A DNA stretch of 64,000 bases, taken from Escherichia coli. Lineage in GTDB: Bacteria; Pseudomonadota; Gammaproteobacteria; Enterobacterales; Enterobacteriaceae. The stretch lies in assembly GCF_003334335.1 (NCBI RefSeq), contig NZ_QOWQ01000004.1; one strand, written 5' to 3'. Shown piece by piece: positions 4,148 through 51,683 of the stretch (position 1 is its first letter; each line of letters opens with the position of its first letter). The notes below the pieces were generated by a model. It was not told the origin of the DNA. It saw only the letters and a list, made by a program, of their open reading frames with translations, and ran no database searches. The translations under genes and the position numbers were made by a program.

Positions 4148-4182
4148 TTTGCACCTCAAAAAAGAGTGGCAAAGGACTTGAG

Positions 4183-4275
4183 AAGGAGCCTCAAATCCCT
4201 TCGCCGGCGTTATCCGGATCAGGTTCGACGGGTATTTTCTCAGCGCACGCGTACGCGTGGCACCCCGTTGAGAAC
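4183..4275 (-). promoter_or_regulatory. TPP (THI-box) riboswitch in thiBPQ leader
   Basis: On minus strand: GGGGTGCCACGCG...CTGAGAAAATACCCGTCGAACCTGATCCGGATAACGCCGGCGAAGGGA, matching conserved TPP aptamer elements (CUGAGA, ACCUGAUC, GGAUAAUGCC-like, GAAGGGA); boundaries approximate. Confidence 0.75.
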
Positions 4276-4310
4276 GGCGTTAGTGTAGTGATTTTGTTAT
4301 CAACCAGCAA

Positions 4311-6033: not shown

Positions 6034-6260
6034 GATGAAGCAAGGGGGTGCCCCATGCGTCAGTTTTATCAGCACTATTTTACCGCGACAGCGAAGTTGT
6101 GCTGGTTGCGTTGGTTAAGCGTCCCACAACGATTAACCATGCTTGAAGGACTGATGCAGTGGGATGACCGCAATTCTGAAAGTTGACTTGCCTGCATCAT
6201 GTGTGACTGAGTATTGGTGTAAAATCACCCGCCAGCAGATTATACCTGCTGGTTTTTTTT
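6034..6260 (+). ncRNA. sgrS: SgrS small RNA (dual-function: base-pairing RNA that also encodes SgrT)
   Basis: Divergent from sgrR; contains the sgrT ORF; 3' stem-loop CCAGCAGATTATACCTGCTGG followed by T8 ending at 6260; 5' end approximate. Confidence 0.75.
6055..6186 (+). CDS. sgrT: small protein SgrT (43 aa)
   Basis: Internal Met of ORF 5887..6186: MRQFYQHYFTATAKLCWLRWLSVPQRLTMLEGLMQWDDRNSES. Confidence 0.7.
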   Translation: MRQFYQHYFTATAKLCWLRWLSVPQRLTMLEGLMQWDDRNSES

Positions 6261-12196: not shown

Positions 12197-12244
12197 GGTT
12201 TGGGTCCTTGTCTCTTTTAGAGCGCCTCGCTTCGGGCATAAAAA

Positions 12245-12275
12245 AACCCGCGCAATGGCGCGGGTTTTTTGTTTG
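12245..12275 (-). terminator. leu operon attenuator (intrinsic terminator)
   Basis: Minus strand AAACCCGCGCCATTGCGCGGGTTTTTTT: GC stem-loop plus T-run immediately downstream of leuL. Confidence 0.7.
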
Positions 12276-12288
12276 ACTGCGTGCTGGC

Positions 12289-12375
12289 TTAATGCTGGAT
12301 GCCGCTCACTCGTCTACCGCGCAAAGAAGATGCGTTTAGTAGTAGTAGACCGATAAAGCGAACGATGTGAGTCAT
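12289..12375 (-). CDS. leuL: leu operon leader peptide (28 aa, four consecutive Leu codons)
   Basis: Minus-strand [31 protein letters not shown] with CTA CTA CTA CTA run, followed by attenuator hairpin. Confidence 0.8.
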
Positions 12376-13034
12376 TAAATCAGCTCCAGATGAATGCGAT
12401 ATGCTTTTAGAGTTACTGGATACAAAAACGGATGTCAACCCTGACGCAATAAAAACGTCCCGCCAGCGTGAGTTCTGCATCCGTAAAATTAGCTAATTGT
12501 GCTGCGGTGGTTAAAGTAAGCGATATTAATTTCTGCTTAACTACCGACGCTTTTCATCGGTTGACATATTTCAGCATAAATTTTTGCATCTAATCAACGA
12601 GGAAAAAGGGGACAAAATGCACGCGTTGCAAAACCTATCCTGATGATTTGTATTGAATTATATGTTTTGCGATTTTTTTTGATATTGATTTGGTGAATAT
12701 TATTGATCAATTAATGTTAAGAATTAATGCATTAAATATATAAATTAATTATTAAATAAGCACATTTAATCCATTTTGTAGATGATTGAGTATTCGCGGT
12801 AGTTATGATTAGATTGTTTTCGCAACAAAAACATTATGGATTATTATGCTGTGGTAAATGACTCATTCCACGGCAATGGATTCTGTTTTTATCAGAACCC
12901 GTATCTTTATGTTTTCCGAATTTTACTCATTTTGCTTTTTCTTATTTTATATGCATGATAAATCATATTCTTCAGGATTATTTCTCTGCATTCCAATAAG
13001 GGAAAGGGAGTTAAGTGTGACAGTGGAGTTAAGT

Positions 13035-17699: not shown

Positions 17700-18219
17700 G
17701 CCGCGAACAAAAATACGCGCCAGGTGAATTTCCCTCTGGCGCGTAGAGTACGGGACTGGACATCAATATGCTTAAAGTAAATAAGACTATTCCTGACTAT
17801 TATTGATAAATGCTTTTAAACCCGCCCGTTAATTAACTCACCAGCTGAAATTCACAATAATTAAGTGATATCGACAGCGCGTTTTTGCATTATTTTGTTA
17901 CATGCGGCGATGAATTGCCGATTTAACAAACACTTTTCTTTGCTTTTGCGCAAACCCGCTGGCATCAAGCGCCACACAGACGTAACAAGGACTGTTAACC
18001 GGGGAAGATATGTCCTAAAATGCCGCTCGCGTCGCAAACTGACACTTTATATTTGCTGTGGAAAATAGTGAGTCATTTTAAAACGGTGATGACGATGAGG
18101 GATTTTTTCTTACAGCTATTCATAACGTTAATTTGCTTCGCACGTTGGACGTAAAATAAACAACGCTGATATTAGCCGTAAACATCGGGTTTTTTACCTC
18201 GGTATGCCTTGTGACTGGC

Positions 18220-18249
18220 TTGACAAGCTTTTCCTCAGCTCCGTAAACT
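18220..18249 (+). promoter_or_regulatory. candidate Pmra promoter (-35 TTGACA, -10 TAAACT)
   Basis: TTGACA at 18220..18225 and TAAACT at 18244..18249, 18-bp spacer, just upstream of mraZ. Confidence 0.5.
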
Positions 18250-18256
18250 CCTTTCA

Positions 18257-18281
18257 GTGGGAAATTGTGGGGCAAAGTGGG
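18257..18281 (+). promoter_or_regulatory. three direct GTGGG repeats at 10-bp phasing (MraZ operator-like)
   Basis: GTGGGAAATTGTGGGGCAAAGTGGG immediately downstream of candidate Pmra; consistent with MraZ autoregulation site. Confidence 0.5.
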
Positions 18282-18300
18282 AATAAGGGGTGAGGCTGGC

Positions 18301-18759
18301 ATGTTCCGGGGAGCAACGTTAGTCAATCTCGACAGCAAAGGGCGCTTATCAGTGCCTACCCGTTATCGGGAACAGCTGCTTGAGAACGCTGCCGGTCAAA
18401 TGGTTTGCACCATTGACATTTATCACCCGTGCCTGCTGCTTTACCCCCTGCCTGAATGGGAAATTATCGAGCAAAAATTATCGCGTCTGTCGAGCATGAA
18501 CCCGGTTGAGCGCCGTGTGCAGCGCCTACTGTTAGGTCATGCCAGCGAATGTCAGATGGATGGCGCAGGTCGATTGTTAATCGCGCCAGTACTGCGGCAA
18601 CATGCCGGGCTGACAAAAGAAGTGATGCTGGTTGGACAGTTCAACAAGTTTGAGCTGTGGGATGAAACAACCTGGCATCAACAGGTCAAGGAAGATATCG
18701 ACGCAGAGCAGTTGGCTACCGGAGACTTATCGGAGCGACTGCAGGACTTGTCTCTATAA
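18301..18759 (+). CDS. mraZ: transcriptional regulator MraZ
   Basis: ORF trimmed to [19 protein letters not shown] (tandem MraZ/SpoVT-AbrB domain); first gene of dcw cluster. Confidence 0.9.
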
Positions 18760-32652: not shown

Positions 32653-33911
32653 TCAAGGCGACGGACAGAAAACTGGTAGTAGGACTGGAGATTGGTACCG
32701 CGAAGGTTGCCGCTTTAGTAGGGGAAGTTCTGCCCGACGGTATGGTCAATATCATTGGCGTGGGCAGCTGCCCGTCGCGTGGTATGGATAAAGGCGGGGT
32801 GAACGACCTCGAATCCGTGGTCAAGTGCGTACAACGCGCCATTGACCAGGCAGAATTGATGGCAGATTGTCAGATCTCTTCGGTATATCTGGCGCTTTCT
32901 GGTAAGCACATCAGCTGCCAGAATGAAATTGGTATGGTGCCTATTTCTGAAGAAGAAGTGACGCAAGAAGATGTGGAAAACGTCGTCCATACCGCGAAAT
33001 CGGTGCGTGTGCGCGATGAGCATCGTGTGCTGCATGTGATCCCGCAAGAGTATGCGATTGACTATCAGGAAGGGATCAAGAATCCGGTAGGACTTTCGGG
33101 CGTGCGGATGCAGGCAAAAGTGCACCTGATCACATGTCACAACGATATGGCGAAAAACATCGTCAAAGCGGTTGAACGTTGTGGGCTGAAAGTTGACCAA
33201 CTGATATTTGCCGGACTGGCATCAAGTTATTCGGTATTGACGGAAGATGAACGTGAACTGGGTGTCTGCGTCGTCGATATCGGTGGTGGTACAATGGATA
33301 TCGCCGTTTATACCGGTGGGGCATTGCGCCACACTAAGGTAATTCCTTATGCTGGCAATGTCGTGACCAGTGATATCGCTTACGCCTTTGGCACGCCGCC
33401 AAGCGACGCCGAAGCGATTAAAGTTCGCCACGGTTGTGCGCTGGGTTCCATCGTTGGAAAAGATGAGAGCGTGGAAGTGCCGAGCGTAGGTGGTCGTCCG
33501 CCACGGAGTCTGCAACGTCAGACACTGGCAGAGGTGATCGAGCCGCGCTATACCGAGCTGCTCAACCTGGTCAACGAAGAGATATTGCAGTTGCAGGAAA
33601 AGCTTCGCCAACAAGGGGTTAAACATCACCTGGCGGCAGGCATTGTATTAACCGGTGGCGCAGCGCAGATCGAAGGTCTTGCAGCCTGTGCTCAGCGCGT
33701 GTTTCATACGCAAGTGCGTATCGGCGCGCCGCTGAACATTACCGGTTTAACGGATTATGCTCAGGAGCCGTATTATTCGACGGCGGTGGGATTGCTTCAC
33801 TATGGGAAAGAGTCACATCTTAACGGTGAAGCTGAAGTAGAAAAACGTGTTACAGCATCAGTTGGCTCGTGGATCAAGCGACTCAATAGTTGGCTGCGAA
33901 AAGAGTTTTAA
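32649..33911 (+). CDS. ftsA: cell division protein FtsA (actin-like ATPase)
   Basis: 420-aa ORF; actin/Hsp70 fold; ATGA overlap with ftsQ. Confidence 0.95.
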
Positions 33912-33971
33912 TTTTTATGAGGCCGACGATGATTACGGCCTCAGGCGACAGGCACAAATCGGAGAGAAACT

Positions 33972-35123
33972 ATGTTTGAACCAATGGAACTTACCAATGA
34001 CGCGGTGATTAAAGTCATCGGCGTCGGCGGCGGCGGCGGTAATGCTGTTGAACACATGGTGCGCGAGCGCATTGAAGGTGTTGAATTCTTCGCGGTAAAT
34101 ACCGATGCACAAGCGCTGCGTAAAACAGCGGTTGGACAGACGATTCAAATCGGTAGCGGTATCACCAAAGGACTGGGCGCTGGCGCTAATCCAGAAGTTG
34201 GCCGCAATGCGGCTGATGAGGATCGCGATGCATTGCGTGCGGCGCTGGAAGGTGCAGACATGGTCTTTATTGCTGCGGGTATGGGTGGTGGTACCGGTAC
34301 AGGTGCAGCACCAGTCGTCGCTGAAGTGGCAAAAGATTTGGGTATCCTGACCGTTGCTGTCGTCACTAAGCCTTTCAACTTTGAAGGCAAGAAGCGTATG
34401 GCATTCGCGGAGCAGGGGATCACTGAACTGTCCAAGCATGTGGACTCTCTGATCACTATCCCGAACGACAAACTGCTGAAAGTTCTGGGCCGCGGTATCT
34501 CCCTGCTGGATGCGTTTGGCGCAGCGAACGATGTACTGAAAGGCGCTGTGCAAGGTATCGCTGAACTGATTACTCGTCCGGGTTTGATGAACGTGGACTT
34601 TGCAGACGTACGCACCGTAATGTCTGAGATGGGCTACGCAATGATGGGTTCTGGCGTGGCGAGCGGTGAAGACCGTGCGGAAGAAGCTGCTGAAATGGCT
34701 ATCTCTTCTCCGCTGCTGGAAGATATCGACCTGTCTGGCGCGCGCGGCGTGCTGGTTAACATCACGGCGGGCTTCGACCTGCGTCTGGATGAGTTCGAAA
34801 CGGTAGGTAACACCATCCGTGCATTTGCTTCCGACAACGCGACTGTGGTTATCGGTACTTCTCTTGACCCGGATATGAATGACGAGCTGCGCGTAACCGT
34901 TGTTGCGACAGGTATCGGCATGGACAAACGTCCTGAAATCACTCTGGTGACCAATAAGCAGGTTCAGCAGCCAGTGATGGATCGCTACCAGCAGCATGGG
35001 ATGGCTCCGCTGACCCAGGAGCAGAAGCCGGTTGCTAAAGTCGTGAATGACAATGCGCCGCAAACTGCGAAAGAGCCGGATTATCTGGATATCCCAGCAT
35101 TCCTGCGTAAGCAAGCTGATTAA
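33972..35123 (+). CDS. ftsZ: cell division GTPase FtsZ
   Basis: 383-aa ORF; tubulin signature [12 protein letters not shown]; C-terminal [14 protein letters not shown]. Confidence 0.97.
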
Positions 35124-36945: not shown

Positions 36946-39651
36946 ATGCTAATCAAATTGTTAACTAAAGTTTTCGGTAGTCGTAACGATCGCACCCTGC
37001 GCCGGATGCGCAAAGTGGTCAACATCATCAATGCCATGGAACCGGAGATGGAAAAACTCTCCGACGAAGAACTGAAAGGGAAAACCGCAGAGTTTCGTGC
37101 ACGTCTGGAAAAAGGCGAAGTGCTGGAAAATCTGATCCCGGAAGCTTTCGCCGTGGTACGTGAGGCAAGTAAGCGCGTCTTTGGTATGCGTCACTTCGAC
37201 GTTCAGTTACTCGGCGGTATGGTTCTTAACGAACGCTGCATCGCCGAAATGCGTACCGGTGAAGGAAAAACCCTGACCGCAACGCTGCCTGCTTACCTGA
37301 ACGCACTAACCGGTAAAGGCGTGCACGTAGTTACCGTCAACGACTACCTGGCGCAACGTGACGCCGAAAACAACCGTCCGCTGTTTGAATTCCTTGGCCT
37401 GACTGTCGGTATCAACCTGCCGGGCATGCCAGCACCGGCAAAGCGCGAAGCTTACGCAGCTGACATCACTTACGGTACGAACAACGAATACGGCTTTGAC
37501 TACCTGCGCGACAACATGGCGTTCAGCCCTGAAGAACGTGTACAGCGTAAACTGCACTATGCGCTGGTGGACGAAGTGGACTCCATCCTGATCGATGAAG
37601 CGCGTACACCGCTGATCATTTCCGGCCCGGCAGAAGACAGCTCGGAAATGTATAAACGCGTGAATAAAATTATTCCGCACCTGATCCGTCAGGAAAAAGA
37701 AGACTCCGAAACCTTCCAGGGCGAAGGCCACTTCTCGGTGGACGAAAAATCTCGCCAGGTGAACCTGACCGAACGTGGTCTGGTGCTGATTGAAGAACTG
37801 CTGGTGAAAGAGGGCATCATGGATGAAGGGGAGTCTCTGTACTCTCCGGCCAACATCATGCTGATGCACCACGTAACGGCGGCGCTGCGCGCTCATGCGC
37901 TGTTTACCCGTGACGTCGACTACATCGTTAAAGATGGTGAAGTTATCATCGTTGACGAACACACCGGTCGTACCATGCAGGGCCGTCGCTGGTCCGATGG
38001 TCTGCACCAGGCTGTGGAAGCGAAAGAAGGTGTGCAGATCCAGAACGAAAACCAAACGCTGGCTTCGATCACCTTCCAGAACTACTTCCGTCTGTATGAA
38101 AAACTGGCGGGGATGACCGGTACTGCTGATACCGAAGCTTTCGAATTTAGCTCAATCTACAAGCTGGATACCGTCGTTGTTCCGACCAACCGTCCAATGA
38201 TTCGTAAAGATCTGCCGGACCTGGTCTACATGACTGAAGCGGAAAAAATTCAGGCGATCATTGAAGATATCAAAGAACGTACTGCGAAAGGCCAGCCGGT
38301 GCTGGTGGGTACTATCTCCATCGAAAAATCGGAGCTGGTGTCAAACGAACTGACCAAAGCCGGTATTAAGCACAACGTCCTGAACGCCAAATTCCACGCC
38401 AACGAAGCGGCGATTGTTGCTCAGGCAGGTTATCCGGCTGCGGTGACTATCGCGACCAATATGGCGGGTCGTGGTACAGATATTGTGCTCGGTGGTAGCT
38501 GGCAGGCAGAAGTTGCCGCGCTGGAAAATCCGACCGCAGAGCAAATTGAAAAAATTAAAGCCGACTGGCAGGTACGTCACGATGCGGTACTGGAAGCAGG
38601 TGGCCTGCATATCATCGGTACCGAGCGTCACGAATCCCGTCGTATCGATAACCAGTTGCGCGGTCGTTCTGGTCGTCAGGGGGATGCTGGTTCTTCCCGT
38701 TTCTACCTGTCGATGGAAGATGCGCTGATGCGTATTTTTGCTTCCGACCGAGTATCCGGCATGATGCGTAAACTGGGTATGAAGCCAGGCGAAGCCATTG
38801 AACACCCGTGGGTGACTAAAGCGATTGCCAACGCCCAGCGTAAAGTTGAAAGCCGTAACTTCGACATTCGTAAGCAACTGCTGGAATATGATGACGTGGC
38901 TAACGATCAGCGTCGCGCCATTTACTCCCAGCGTAACGAACTGTTGGATGTCAGCGATGTGAGCGAAACCATTAACAGCATTCGTGAAGATGTGTTCAAA
39001 GCGACCATTGATGCCTACATTCCACCACAGTCGCTGGAAGAAATGTGGGATATTCCGGGGCTGCAGGAACGTCTGAAGAACGATTTCGACCTCGATTTGC
39101 CAATTGCCGAGTGGCTGGATAAAGAACCAGAACTGCATGAAGAGACGCTGCGTGAGCGCATTCTGGCGCAGTCCATCGAAGTGTATCAGCGTAAAGAAGA
39201 AGTGGTTGGTGCTGAGATGATGCGTCACTTCGAGAAAGGCGTCATGCTGCAAACGCTTGACTCCCTGTGGAAAGAGCACCTGGCAGCGATGGACTATCTG
39301 CGTCAGGGTATCCACCTGCGTGGCTACGCACAGAAAGATCCGAAGCAGGAATACAAACGTGAATCGTTCTCCATGTTTGCAGCGATGCTGGAGTCGTTGA
39401 AATATGAAGTTATCAGTACGCTGAGCAAAGTTCAGGTACGTATGCCTGAAGAGGTTGAGGAGCTGGAACAACAGCGTCGTATGGAAGCCGAGCGTTTAGC
39501 GCAAATGCAGCAGCTTAGCCATCAGGATGACGACTCTGCAGCCGCAGCTGCACTGGCGGCGCAAACCGGAGAGCGCAAAGTAGGACGTAACGATCCTTGC
39601 CCGTGCGGTTCTGGTAAAAAATACAAGCAGTGCCATGGCCGCCTGCAATAA
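36946..39651 (+). CDS. secA: preprotein translocase ATPase SecA
   Basis: 901-aa ORF; Walker A MRTGEGKT; C-terminal zinc motif [14 protein letters not shown]. Confidence 0.97.
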
Positions 39652-39672
39652 AAGCTAACTGTTGAAGTAAAA

Positions 39673-39696
39673 GGCGCAGGATTCTGCGCCTTTTTT
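39673..39696 (+). terminator. candidate intrinsic terminator/attenuating hairpin between secA and mutT
   Basis: GGCGCAGGATTCTGCGCC followed by TTTTTT. Confidence 0.55.

Positions 39697-40096: not shown

Positions 40097-40100
<4 letters not shown>
39711..40100 (+). CDS. mutT: 8-oxo-dGTP diphosphatase (Nudix)
   Basis: 129-aa ORF; Nudix box GGKIEMGETPEQAVVRELQEEVGI. Confidence 0.9.
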
Positions 40101-40300
<200 letters not shown>

Positions 40301-51523: not shown

Positions 51524-51683
51524 TGATTTTTCTGGTAAAAATTATCCAGAAGATGTTGTAAATCAAGCGCATATAAAAGCGCGGCAACTAAACGTAGAAC
51601 CTGTCTTATTGAGCTTTCCGGCGAGAGTTCAATGGGACAGGTTCCAGAAAACTCAACGTTATTAGATAGATAAGGAATAACCC

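Follow-up and report, generated by a model that had tools for sequence, protein, structure and literature searches.

The 64,000-nt stretch of Escherichia coli DNA analysed here (the window) carries, at positions 18220–18281 of its plus strand, the sigma-70 promoter of the dcw cluster, Pmra (mraZ1p), together with the operator of the repressor MraZ, an assignment to which we give a probability of about 0.95. The preliminary description of this DNA had read the segment as a candidate Pmra, with repeats consistent with MraZ autorepression of the dcw cluster. This reading is supported by genome-wide maps of transcription start sites (TSSs), by the conservation of the element in related species and by published accounts of repression by MraZ (PMC7761207, PMC8475190). 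The element and its surroundings comprise the following features, all on the plus strand.

18220–18225, plus strand: −35 hexamer of Pmra, TTGACA, the consensus (direct reading and promoter scan; invariant in 81/81 Enterobacteriaceae)
18226–18243, plus strand: Pmra spacer of 18 nt, AGCTTTTCCTCAGCTCCG (length 18 in 81/81; 13/18 columns invariant)
18244–18249, plus strand: −10 hexamer of Pmra, TAAACT (4/6 matches to TATAAT, with A2 and T6 present; invariant in 81/81)
18255–18257, plus strand: start of the mraZ/dcw transcript, at C18255, A18256 or G18257 depending on the dataset (three TSS datasets; leader of 44–46 nt)
18257–18261, plus strand: MraZ box 1, GTGGG (starts at about +1; GTGGG in 80/81, GTGG core invariant)
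18267–18271, plus strand: MraZ box 2, GTGGG (GTGGG in 80/81; 5′ triplet ATT in E. coli, TTT in relatives)
18277–18281, plus strand: MraZ box 3, GTGGG in E. coli and GTGG[T/C/A] elsewhere (invariant AAA on its 5′ side; GTGG invariant)
18287–18290, plus strand: GGGG run in 10-bp register with the boxes, of putative role (columns at offsets +30 to +33 are 93–95% G)
18292–18295, plus strand: Shine-Dalgarno (SD) sequence of mraZ, GAGG (assigned by position, 5 nt before the ATG)
18301–18759, plus strand: mraZ, 152 aa (open reading frame; TIGR00242 MraZ equivalog; RefSeq annotation)

The mraZ promoter and its transcription start

The locus is 100% identical to that of E. coli K-12 MG1655 over window positions 17700–18320 and is present in 5424 of the 5426 complete E. 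coli genomes. MG1655 coordinates are obtained by adding 71333 to those of the window, which places the ATG of mraZ (b0081), window position 18301, at MG1655 89634. The cra–mraZ intergenic region is flanked upstream by ilvI–ilvN(ilvH)–cra and downstream by mraZ–rsmH–ftsL–ftsI. A terminator scan detected no terminator in this intergenic region, and an Rfam scan of the whole window returned no RNA family either there or in the mraZ leader.

The hexamers of Pmra conform to the general architecture of sigma-70 promoters, with a −35 and a −10 element separated by a spacer that falls within the range of 16–18 nt, here one nucleotide above the 17-nt optimum. The consensus −35 element named in the preliminary description is exact, whereas its qualification of TAAACT as near-consensus is slightly generous for a hexamer with four of six matches, even though the critical A2 and T6 are in place. 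Pmra scores 10/12 in a promoter scan and is the sole site reaching at least 10/12 in the 64-kb window. However, mononucleotide shuffles of the window contain about 7.4 sites at 10/12, so that the score alone is not beyond chance. Because a match of this quality is not improbable, the case for a real promoter rests on the TSS data and on conservation.

Three independent genome-wide maps converge on the same start. Cappable-seq (PMC4782308, supplementary file 1) reports a plus-strand TSS at MG1655 89590, with the top score in its neighbourhood. SMRT-Cappable-seq (PMC6131387, supplementary file 4) gives starts at 89588 and 89589, whose transcripts cover b0081–b0083 and are related to the b0081–b0096 unit. 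TSS-seq (PMC3415461, supplementary file 2) places the E. coli mraZ start at 89589 (29 reads, 45-nt leader), and the same study maps the orthologous start of Klebsiella pneumoniae, whose leader is likewise 45 nt long, to the base just 5′ of box 1. Translated into window coordinates, the E. coli starts occupy 18255–18257, that is, 6–8 nt past the last base of TAAACT, which is a normal −10-to-start spacing and agrees with the −10 hexamer originally proposed. Since transcription starts at 18255–18257, the first base of MraZ box 1 is at about +1, and the operator reaches roughly from +1 to +25.

A different start, 38 bp upstream of mraZ, is quoted in PMC7761207, which cites Hara 1997 for it. This position corresponds to window 18263 (MG1655 89596), lies 14 nt past TAAACT and inside the operator, and would not fit TAAACT as the −10 hexamer. 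It is also 6–7 nt downstream of the starts in the three genome-wide maps (89588–89590) and is contradicted by all three of them. Processing of the RNA, an offset in mapping or another counting convention may account for the older value.

Other transcription starts are recorded in the vicinity. Two weaker plus-strand Cappable-seq TSSs are found upstream of Pmra at window positions 17904 and 18027 (MG1655 89237 and 89360), inside the 601-bp cra–mraZ intergenic region, where there is no annotation. The same dataset also lists internal plus-strand TSSs within mraZ, at MG1655 89701, 89783 and 89806.

The Rfam scan also returned matches elsewhere in the window, among which SgrS (6034–6260), the Leu leader (12240–12389, minus strand), a TPP riboswitch (4178–4277, minus strand) and tp2 (51568–51681, minus strand) were expected. 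A match to PssrA, the ‘plasmid-encoded Shigella sRNA A’, is located here on the chromosome at 33891–33980 (plus strand; 105 bits against a gathering score of 69), presumably about 80–170 nt upstream of the ftsZ start, judging by the coordinate offset. STnc40 and two tandem copies of naRNA4 (CssrE), at 39627–39696 and 40100–40293 (plus strand), resemble REP/BIME-type elements.

MraZ boxes and their conservation

Direct reading of the DNA confirms the three GTGGG repeats that had been noted just before mraZ, with starts at 18257, 18267 and 18277, exactly 10 bp apart; the mraZ ATG follows box 3 at a distance of 20 nt. The pattern GTGGG-N5-GTGGG-N5-GTGGG, with at most one mismatch allowed, occurs once in the 64-kb window when both strands are considered, and in none of 100 dinucleotide shuffles. 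The looser pattern GTGG-N6-GTGG-N6-GTGG also occurs once, against an expected 0.01, and even the two-box pattern is restricted, within the window, to this locus. Eraso et al. reportedly described, in 2014, three direct repeats between Pmra and mraZ, written as TGGGN with 5-nt spacers, a notation that corresponds to the same register as GTGGG shifted by one base. The array agrees with the definition of an MraZ operator as at least three GTG(G/T) boxes with a 10-bp period (PMC12957436). It is located just downstream of the −10 hexamer and overlaps the transcription start, which is adjacent to or inside box 1.

The conservation of the element was evaluated over 81 sequences, comprising the window and 80 loci from different Enterobacteriaceae species that were collected by a genome scan with MraZ (MraZ 88–95% identical). 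The layout TTGACA-N18-TAAACT-N6-8-GTGGN-N5-GTGGN-N5-GTGGN is found in all 81, with the 18-nt length of the spacer, the GTGG cores and the 10-bp register of the boxes being strictly invariant. Box 1 lies 7 nt from the −10 hexamer in most sequences (73), the others having 6 nt (6 sequences) or 8 nt (2 sequences). The AAA triplet on the 5′ side of box 3 is invariant; box 2 directly follows an invariant TT, which is itself preceded by T in 79/81. The remaining inter-box positions vary among the 81 sequences. As a neutral yardstick, 33 fourfold-degenerate mraZ sites at which the first two codon bases are fixed were taken from the same genomes. Only 3% of these sites are invariant, and their commonest base averages 0.70. 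Measured against this baseline, the retention of the boxes in 81/81 sequences bears out the conservation across Enterobacteriaceae by which the repeats were to be judged.

In contrast to the GTGG cores, the fifth base of box 3 is variable: T in 54 sequences, C in 15, A in 11 and G in only one, which is the window. Because G occurs at this position only in E. coli, what is conserved for recognition is GTGG, repeated at a strict 10-bp period, rather than GTGGG.

Columns upstream of 18215 behave like the neutral baseline, whereas those from 18215 to 18253 are almost all invariant. For the spacer, the observed proportion of invariant columns (13/18) has a probability of about 1e-16 under the neutral rate. 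Conservation beyond the hexamers includes four of the five bases upstream of the −35 element (most of CTGGC), the CCTT on the 3′ side of the −10 element and most of the discriminator. A tandem CTCCG-CTCCG is present in the spacer of most species.

Between box 3 and the mraZ ATG there are about 19 nt in 61 species and about 29 nt in the other 20, two classes one box period apart; loci named with this observation are L069 (Cedecea) and L054, L056 and L058 (Buttiauxella). Members of both classes have a GGGG run at the in-phase offset of +30, with 93–95% conservation. This run, located at 18287–18290 in the window, was considered as a fourth MraZ box and rejected since, though conserved, it has no T at the position that is contacted in GTG(G/T); it may be what is left of a former fourth box, or belong to an SD block that was duplicated. 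One locus of the comparison (L023, CACSKA010000010.1) is labelled ‘Chryseobacterium sp. 18061’, but its mraZ locus is 92% identical to E. coli MraZ and its upstream region is identical to that of ‘Citrobacter sp. 18056’ (L021). The L023 assembly is probably mislabelled or contaminated.

In 4839 of 5424 E. coli genomes the 106-bp element shows an identity of at least 99%. Among seven sampled strains, variation is limited to positions 18237 and 18255 (C or T), plus a 5-bp deletion in one strain. Position 18237 is A in K-12-type strains and C in the other sampled E. coli, and in the other 80 species it is C in 70 and T in 10. Judging from this distribution, A18237 of K-12 is a derived polymorphism within a spacer that is otherwise highly conserved, and it breaks the CTCCG-CTCCG tandem. 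G18281, the fifth base of box 3, is present in 7/7 sampled E. coli, and E. albertii has T. This base makes box 3 a perfect GTGGG and at the same time creates a canonical four-run G-quadruplex (G4) motif, in E. coli only among the 81 species. The deletion, found in strain WS3294A (NZ_CP035819.1, 3576754–3576894), removes CAGTG, aligned to window 18255–18259, and thereby deletes both the mapped start and bases 1–3 of box 1; either the operator of this strain is a natural variant or the assembly is in error.

The same arrangement can be recognized at much larger evolutionary distances. Metagenome contigs were scanned for GTGGG-N5-GTGGG-N5-GTGG, which yielded at least 80 loci, a sample rather than a census. 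Among the 80 matches listed, 21 are followed at 30–240 nt, on the same strand, by an MraZ-like open reading frame with 24–46% identity to E. coli MraZ. For a 14-base pattern, adjoining one particular gene at 21 of the 80 listed matches is a very large enrichment. The GC content of these 21 listed loci ranges from 33 to 73%, and a homologue of rsmH comes after mraZ in 20 of them, the remaining one being a 1-kb fragment. Box number varies among the 21 listed relatives: three in 11, four in 9 and five in 1. Eleven of the listed relatives have a recognizable promoter, defined as a sigma-70-type match of at least 9/12, and in 10 of these the −10 hexamer is followed by box 1 at a distance of −2 to +11 nt. 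Because this −10-to-box 1 geometry is shared by 10/11, the layout in which the operator sits on the start site is general. Several metagenome contigs (loci L111, L097, L103 and L118) have the pattern in clusters of 2–5 matches with no mraZ nearby, and presumably represent unrelated G-rich tandem repeats.

Repression by MraZ and alternative explanations

The product of the first gene downstream of the boxes is an MraZ equivalog. It matches TIGR00242 with 227 bits (cutoff 98), and RefSeq names it ‘division/cell wall cluster transcriptional repressor MraZ’. Relatives of MraZ in the PDB are 9qlr, 9qlg and 1n0e. Both DXXXR motifs are present, as DSKGR at residues 11–15 and DGAGR at residues 87–91, and they include K13, R15 and R91, so that the protein has the two motifs, the lysine and the two arginines expected of an MraZ cognate to such boxes.

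Repression of Pmra by E. coli MraZ was demonstrated experimentally by Eraso et al. 2014, according to PMC7761207, which ascribes it to binding of a repeated sequence downstream of the −10 element. PMC8475190 likewise states that E. coli MraZ represses Pmra and terms the repeats ‘MraZ boxes’. MraZ binding repeats (MBRs) have been described in E. coli, B. subtilis and Mycoplasma, and the effect is lost when Arg15 of the first DXXXR motif is replaced by alanine (R15A; bioRxiv 10.1101/2022.02.09.479790). The structural basis of recognition is provided by the cryo-EM analysis of the M. genitalium MraZ–DNA complex (PMC12957436), in which GTG(G/T) boxes separated by 6-nt spacers each accommodate one MraZ subunit in successive major grooves, the ring oligomer being opened and lying along the DNA. 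Lys13, Arg15 and Arg86 contact the bases of TG(T/G), and the TSS is inside box 1. E. coli MraZ is reported to be a dodecamer, not an octamer (PMC12957436). The bases contacted in the M. genitalium structure agree with the pattern seen here, in which T-G-G is invariant in every box and the fifth base of box 3 varies. The proposal that helical phasing puts the repeats on one face of the DNA is likewise upheld by the 10-bp register, invariant in 81/81, and by the occupancy of one subunit per box in the homologous complex (PMC12957436).

These data suggest the following mode of action. RNA polymerase recognizes TTGACA, the 18-nt spacer and TAAACT, and initiates at 18255–18257, the start being established by the three datasets. 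Each GTGG(G) box would be contacted by the SpoVT/AbrB ‘cradle’ of one subunit of the MraZ oligomer, with K13, R15 and the arginine of the second DXXXR motif. The cradles would enter consecutive major grooves on the same side of the helix, as demonstrated structurally for the M. genitalium homologue; for E. coli MraZ we infer this mode of binding from the conserved residues and the geometry of the boxes. The operator extends over the start site and the region transcribed first, so that MraZ bound there should obstruct RNA polymerase; this geometry would be compatible with interference at polymerase binding, open-complex formation or promoter escape. Repression by MraZ places mraZ and the dcw genes downstream of it under negative autoregulation.

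The invariance of the Pmra core might in addition reflect a further sequence-specific constraint, such as a second regulator binding the CTCCGCTCCG tandem (two copies of CGGAG on the other strand) or special promoter kinetics and, separately, the T-to-G change in box 3 of E. coli may tune the affinity for MraZ or add an E. coli-only G4 layer. These suggestions are speculative, and we hold them to be rather unlikely.

The G-rich character of the repeats raises the question of whether they act mainly as a G-quadruplex, in the non-template DNA or in the mRNA leader, controlling transcription or translation of the dcw cluster. The window does contain GGG-N7-GGGG-N6-GGG-N5-GGGG at 18259–18290, a match to the canonical G3+N1-7 motif, of which the 64 kb hold only three. 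Moreover, an intramolecular parallel G4 is reported for the S. aureus mraZ promoter, together with the claim that G4-forming motifs are conserved in Gram-negative mraZ promoters (PMC11796246). However, four runs of at least three G are found in only one of the 81 Enterobacteriaceae sequences, that of E. coli, even when loops of up to 12 nt are allowed; the motif is confined to the window because box 3 is GTGG[T/C/A] elsewhere. Conversely, the T of each GTGG, the 10-bp register and the A/T triplets on the 5′ side of boxes 2 and 3 are conserved, features that a G4 does not need and that fit recognition by a protein. Since these are kept and the four-run motif is present in 1/81, selection acts on the MraZ boxes and not on a G4. 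The leader RNA (18257–18330) folds no better than shuffled sequences (z = −0.07), which speaks against control by a G4 or another RNA element; a role for RNA structure in the leader was accordingly rejected. The Rfam scan matched no family there. A G-quadruplex as a conserved function was rejected on the basis of its occurrence in a single sequence, and we regard it as very improbable that the repeats serve mainly in this way.

A second possibility is that PdhR (Goehler 2011), or another regulator, is the main controller and acts around the −35 element and the spacer, the GTGGG boxes being secondary. The ‘MraZop’ probe of the PdhR study spans window 18200–18243 and the site shows a 1.7-fold ChIP enrichment (PMC3265435), and columns from 5 nt upstream of the −35 element through the spacer are far more conserved than neutral sites. 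Yet binding in vitro is qualified as ‘very weak’ by the authors themselves (PMC3265435), the left part of the PdhR palindrome, upstream of 18215, is poorly conserved (commonest-base frequencies of 0.37–0.74), and PdhR leaves the phased boxes unexplained. That PdhR or another such factor predominates is scarcely credible, and PdhR control could coexist with MraZ control rather than replace it. The weak PdhR site overlaps only the −35 side of the conserved Pmra core.

Finally, although a 10/12 hexamer match is expected about 7 times per 64 kb of shuffled sequence and the repeats are part of the transcript and near the SD sequence, the idea that chance, or the composition of a purine-rich ribosome-binding leader, produced the repeats without any operator function, and that the hexamers are fortuitous, has a negligible probability and is effectively refuted by conservation and TSS data: the triple repeat is absent from 100/100 shuffles, its cores are invariant in 81 sequences against 3% of neutral sites, the pattern recurs upstream of mraZ genes whose products are only 24–46% identical at GC contents of 33–73%, and three TSS datasets confirm the promoter.

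Comparison with known systems

Most of the essential genes for division and the cell wall in E. coli are transcribed from Pmra, which makes the promoter a biologically important element. To our knowledge, MraZ autorepression is the only dedicated control known at this promoter, and Pmra itself was reportedly described by Hara et al. in 1997. The value of the present analysis is confirmatory: a call made from the sequence alone proved accurate, and box 1 is pinned to the transcription start by three datasets. The promoter and its MraZ operator are already known (Hara et al. 1997, J Bacteriol 179:5802; Eraso et al. 2014, J Bacteriol 196:2053; homologue structure 2026), and the refinements added here are minor, namely the GTGG core, the E. 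coli-specific fifth G of box 3, the start at 18255–18257 and an unusually conserved spacer.

The element is the very locus known from E. coli, Pmra (mraZ1p) with its three-repeat MraZ operator, being 100% identical to K-12 MG1655. It shows no substantive difference from Pmra as described; only the quoted 38-bp start departs from the genome-wide maps. MraZ boxes of other bacteria have been given as AAAGTG[T/G] in Mollicutes (Fisunov 2016) and as three copies of GTGG[A/T]G in B. subtilis (White et al. 2022), while B. cenocepacia has four repeats (PMC7761207) and the M. genitalium cryo-EM complex contains four boxes (PMC12957436). The E. coli operator has in common with these a GTG(G/T) core, a 10-bp period and a location at or just after the −10 element that overlaps the TSS. 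It also shares with other bacteria that possess MraZ boxes its place at the head of mraZ–rsmH and an MraZ endowed with K13, R15 and the second DXXXR arginine. Taken with the AAA that precedes it, box 3 of E. coli (AAAGTGG) matches the Mollicutes consensus. The number of boxes is three in E. coli and the other Enterobacteriaceae, as against four in M. genitalium and in 9 of the 21 listed metagenome relatives, and boxes 1 and 2 of the Enterobacteriaceae have G as their fifth base. The likeness to the G4 of the S. aureus mraZ promoter (PMC11796246) lies in a G-rich repeated tract in the mraZ promoter and leader, E. coli having a canonical four-run motif at 18259–18290; the difference is that the E. 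coli motif is not conserved within the Enterobacteriaceae (1/81).
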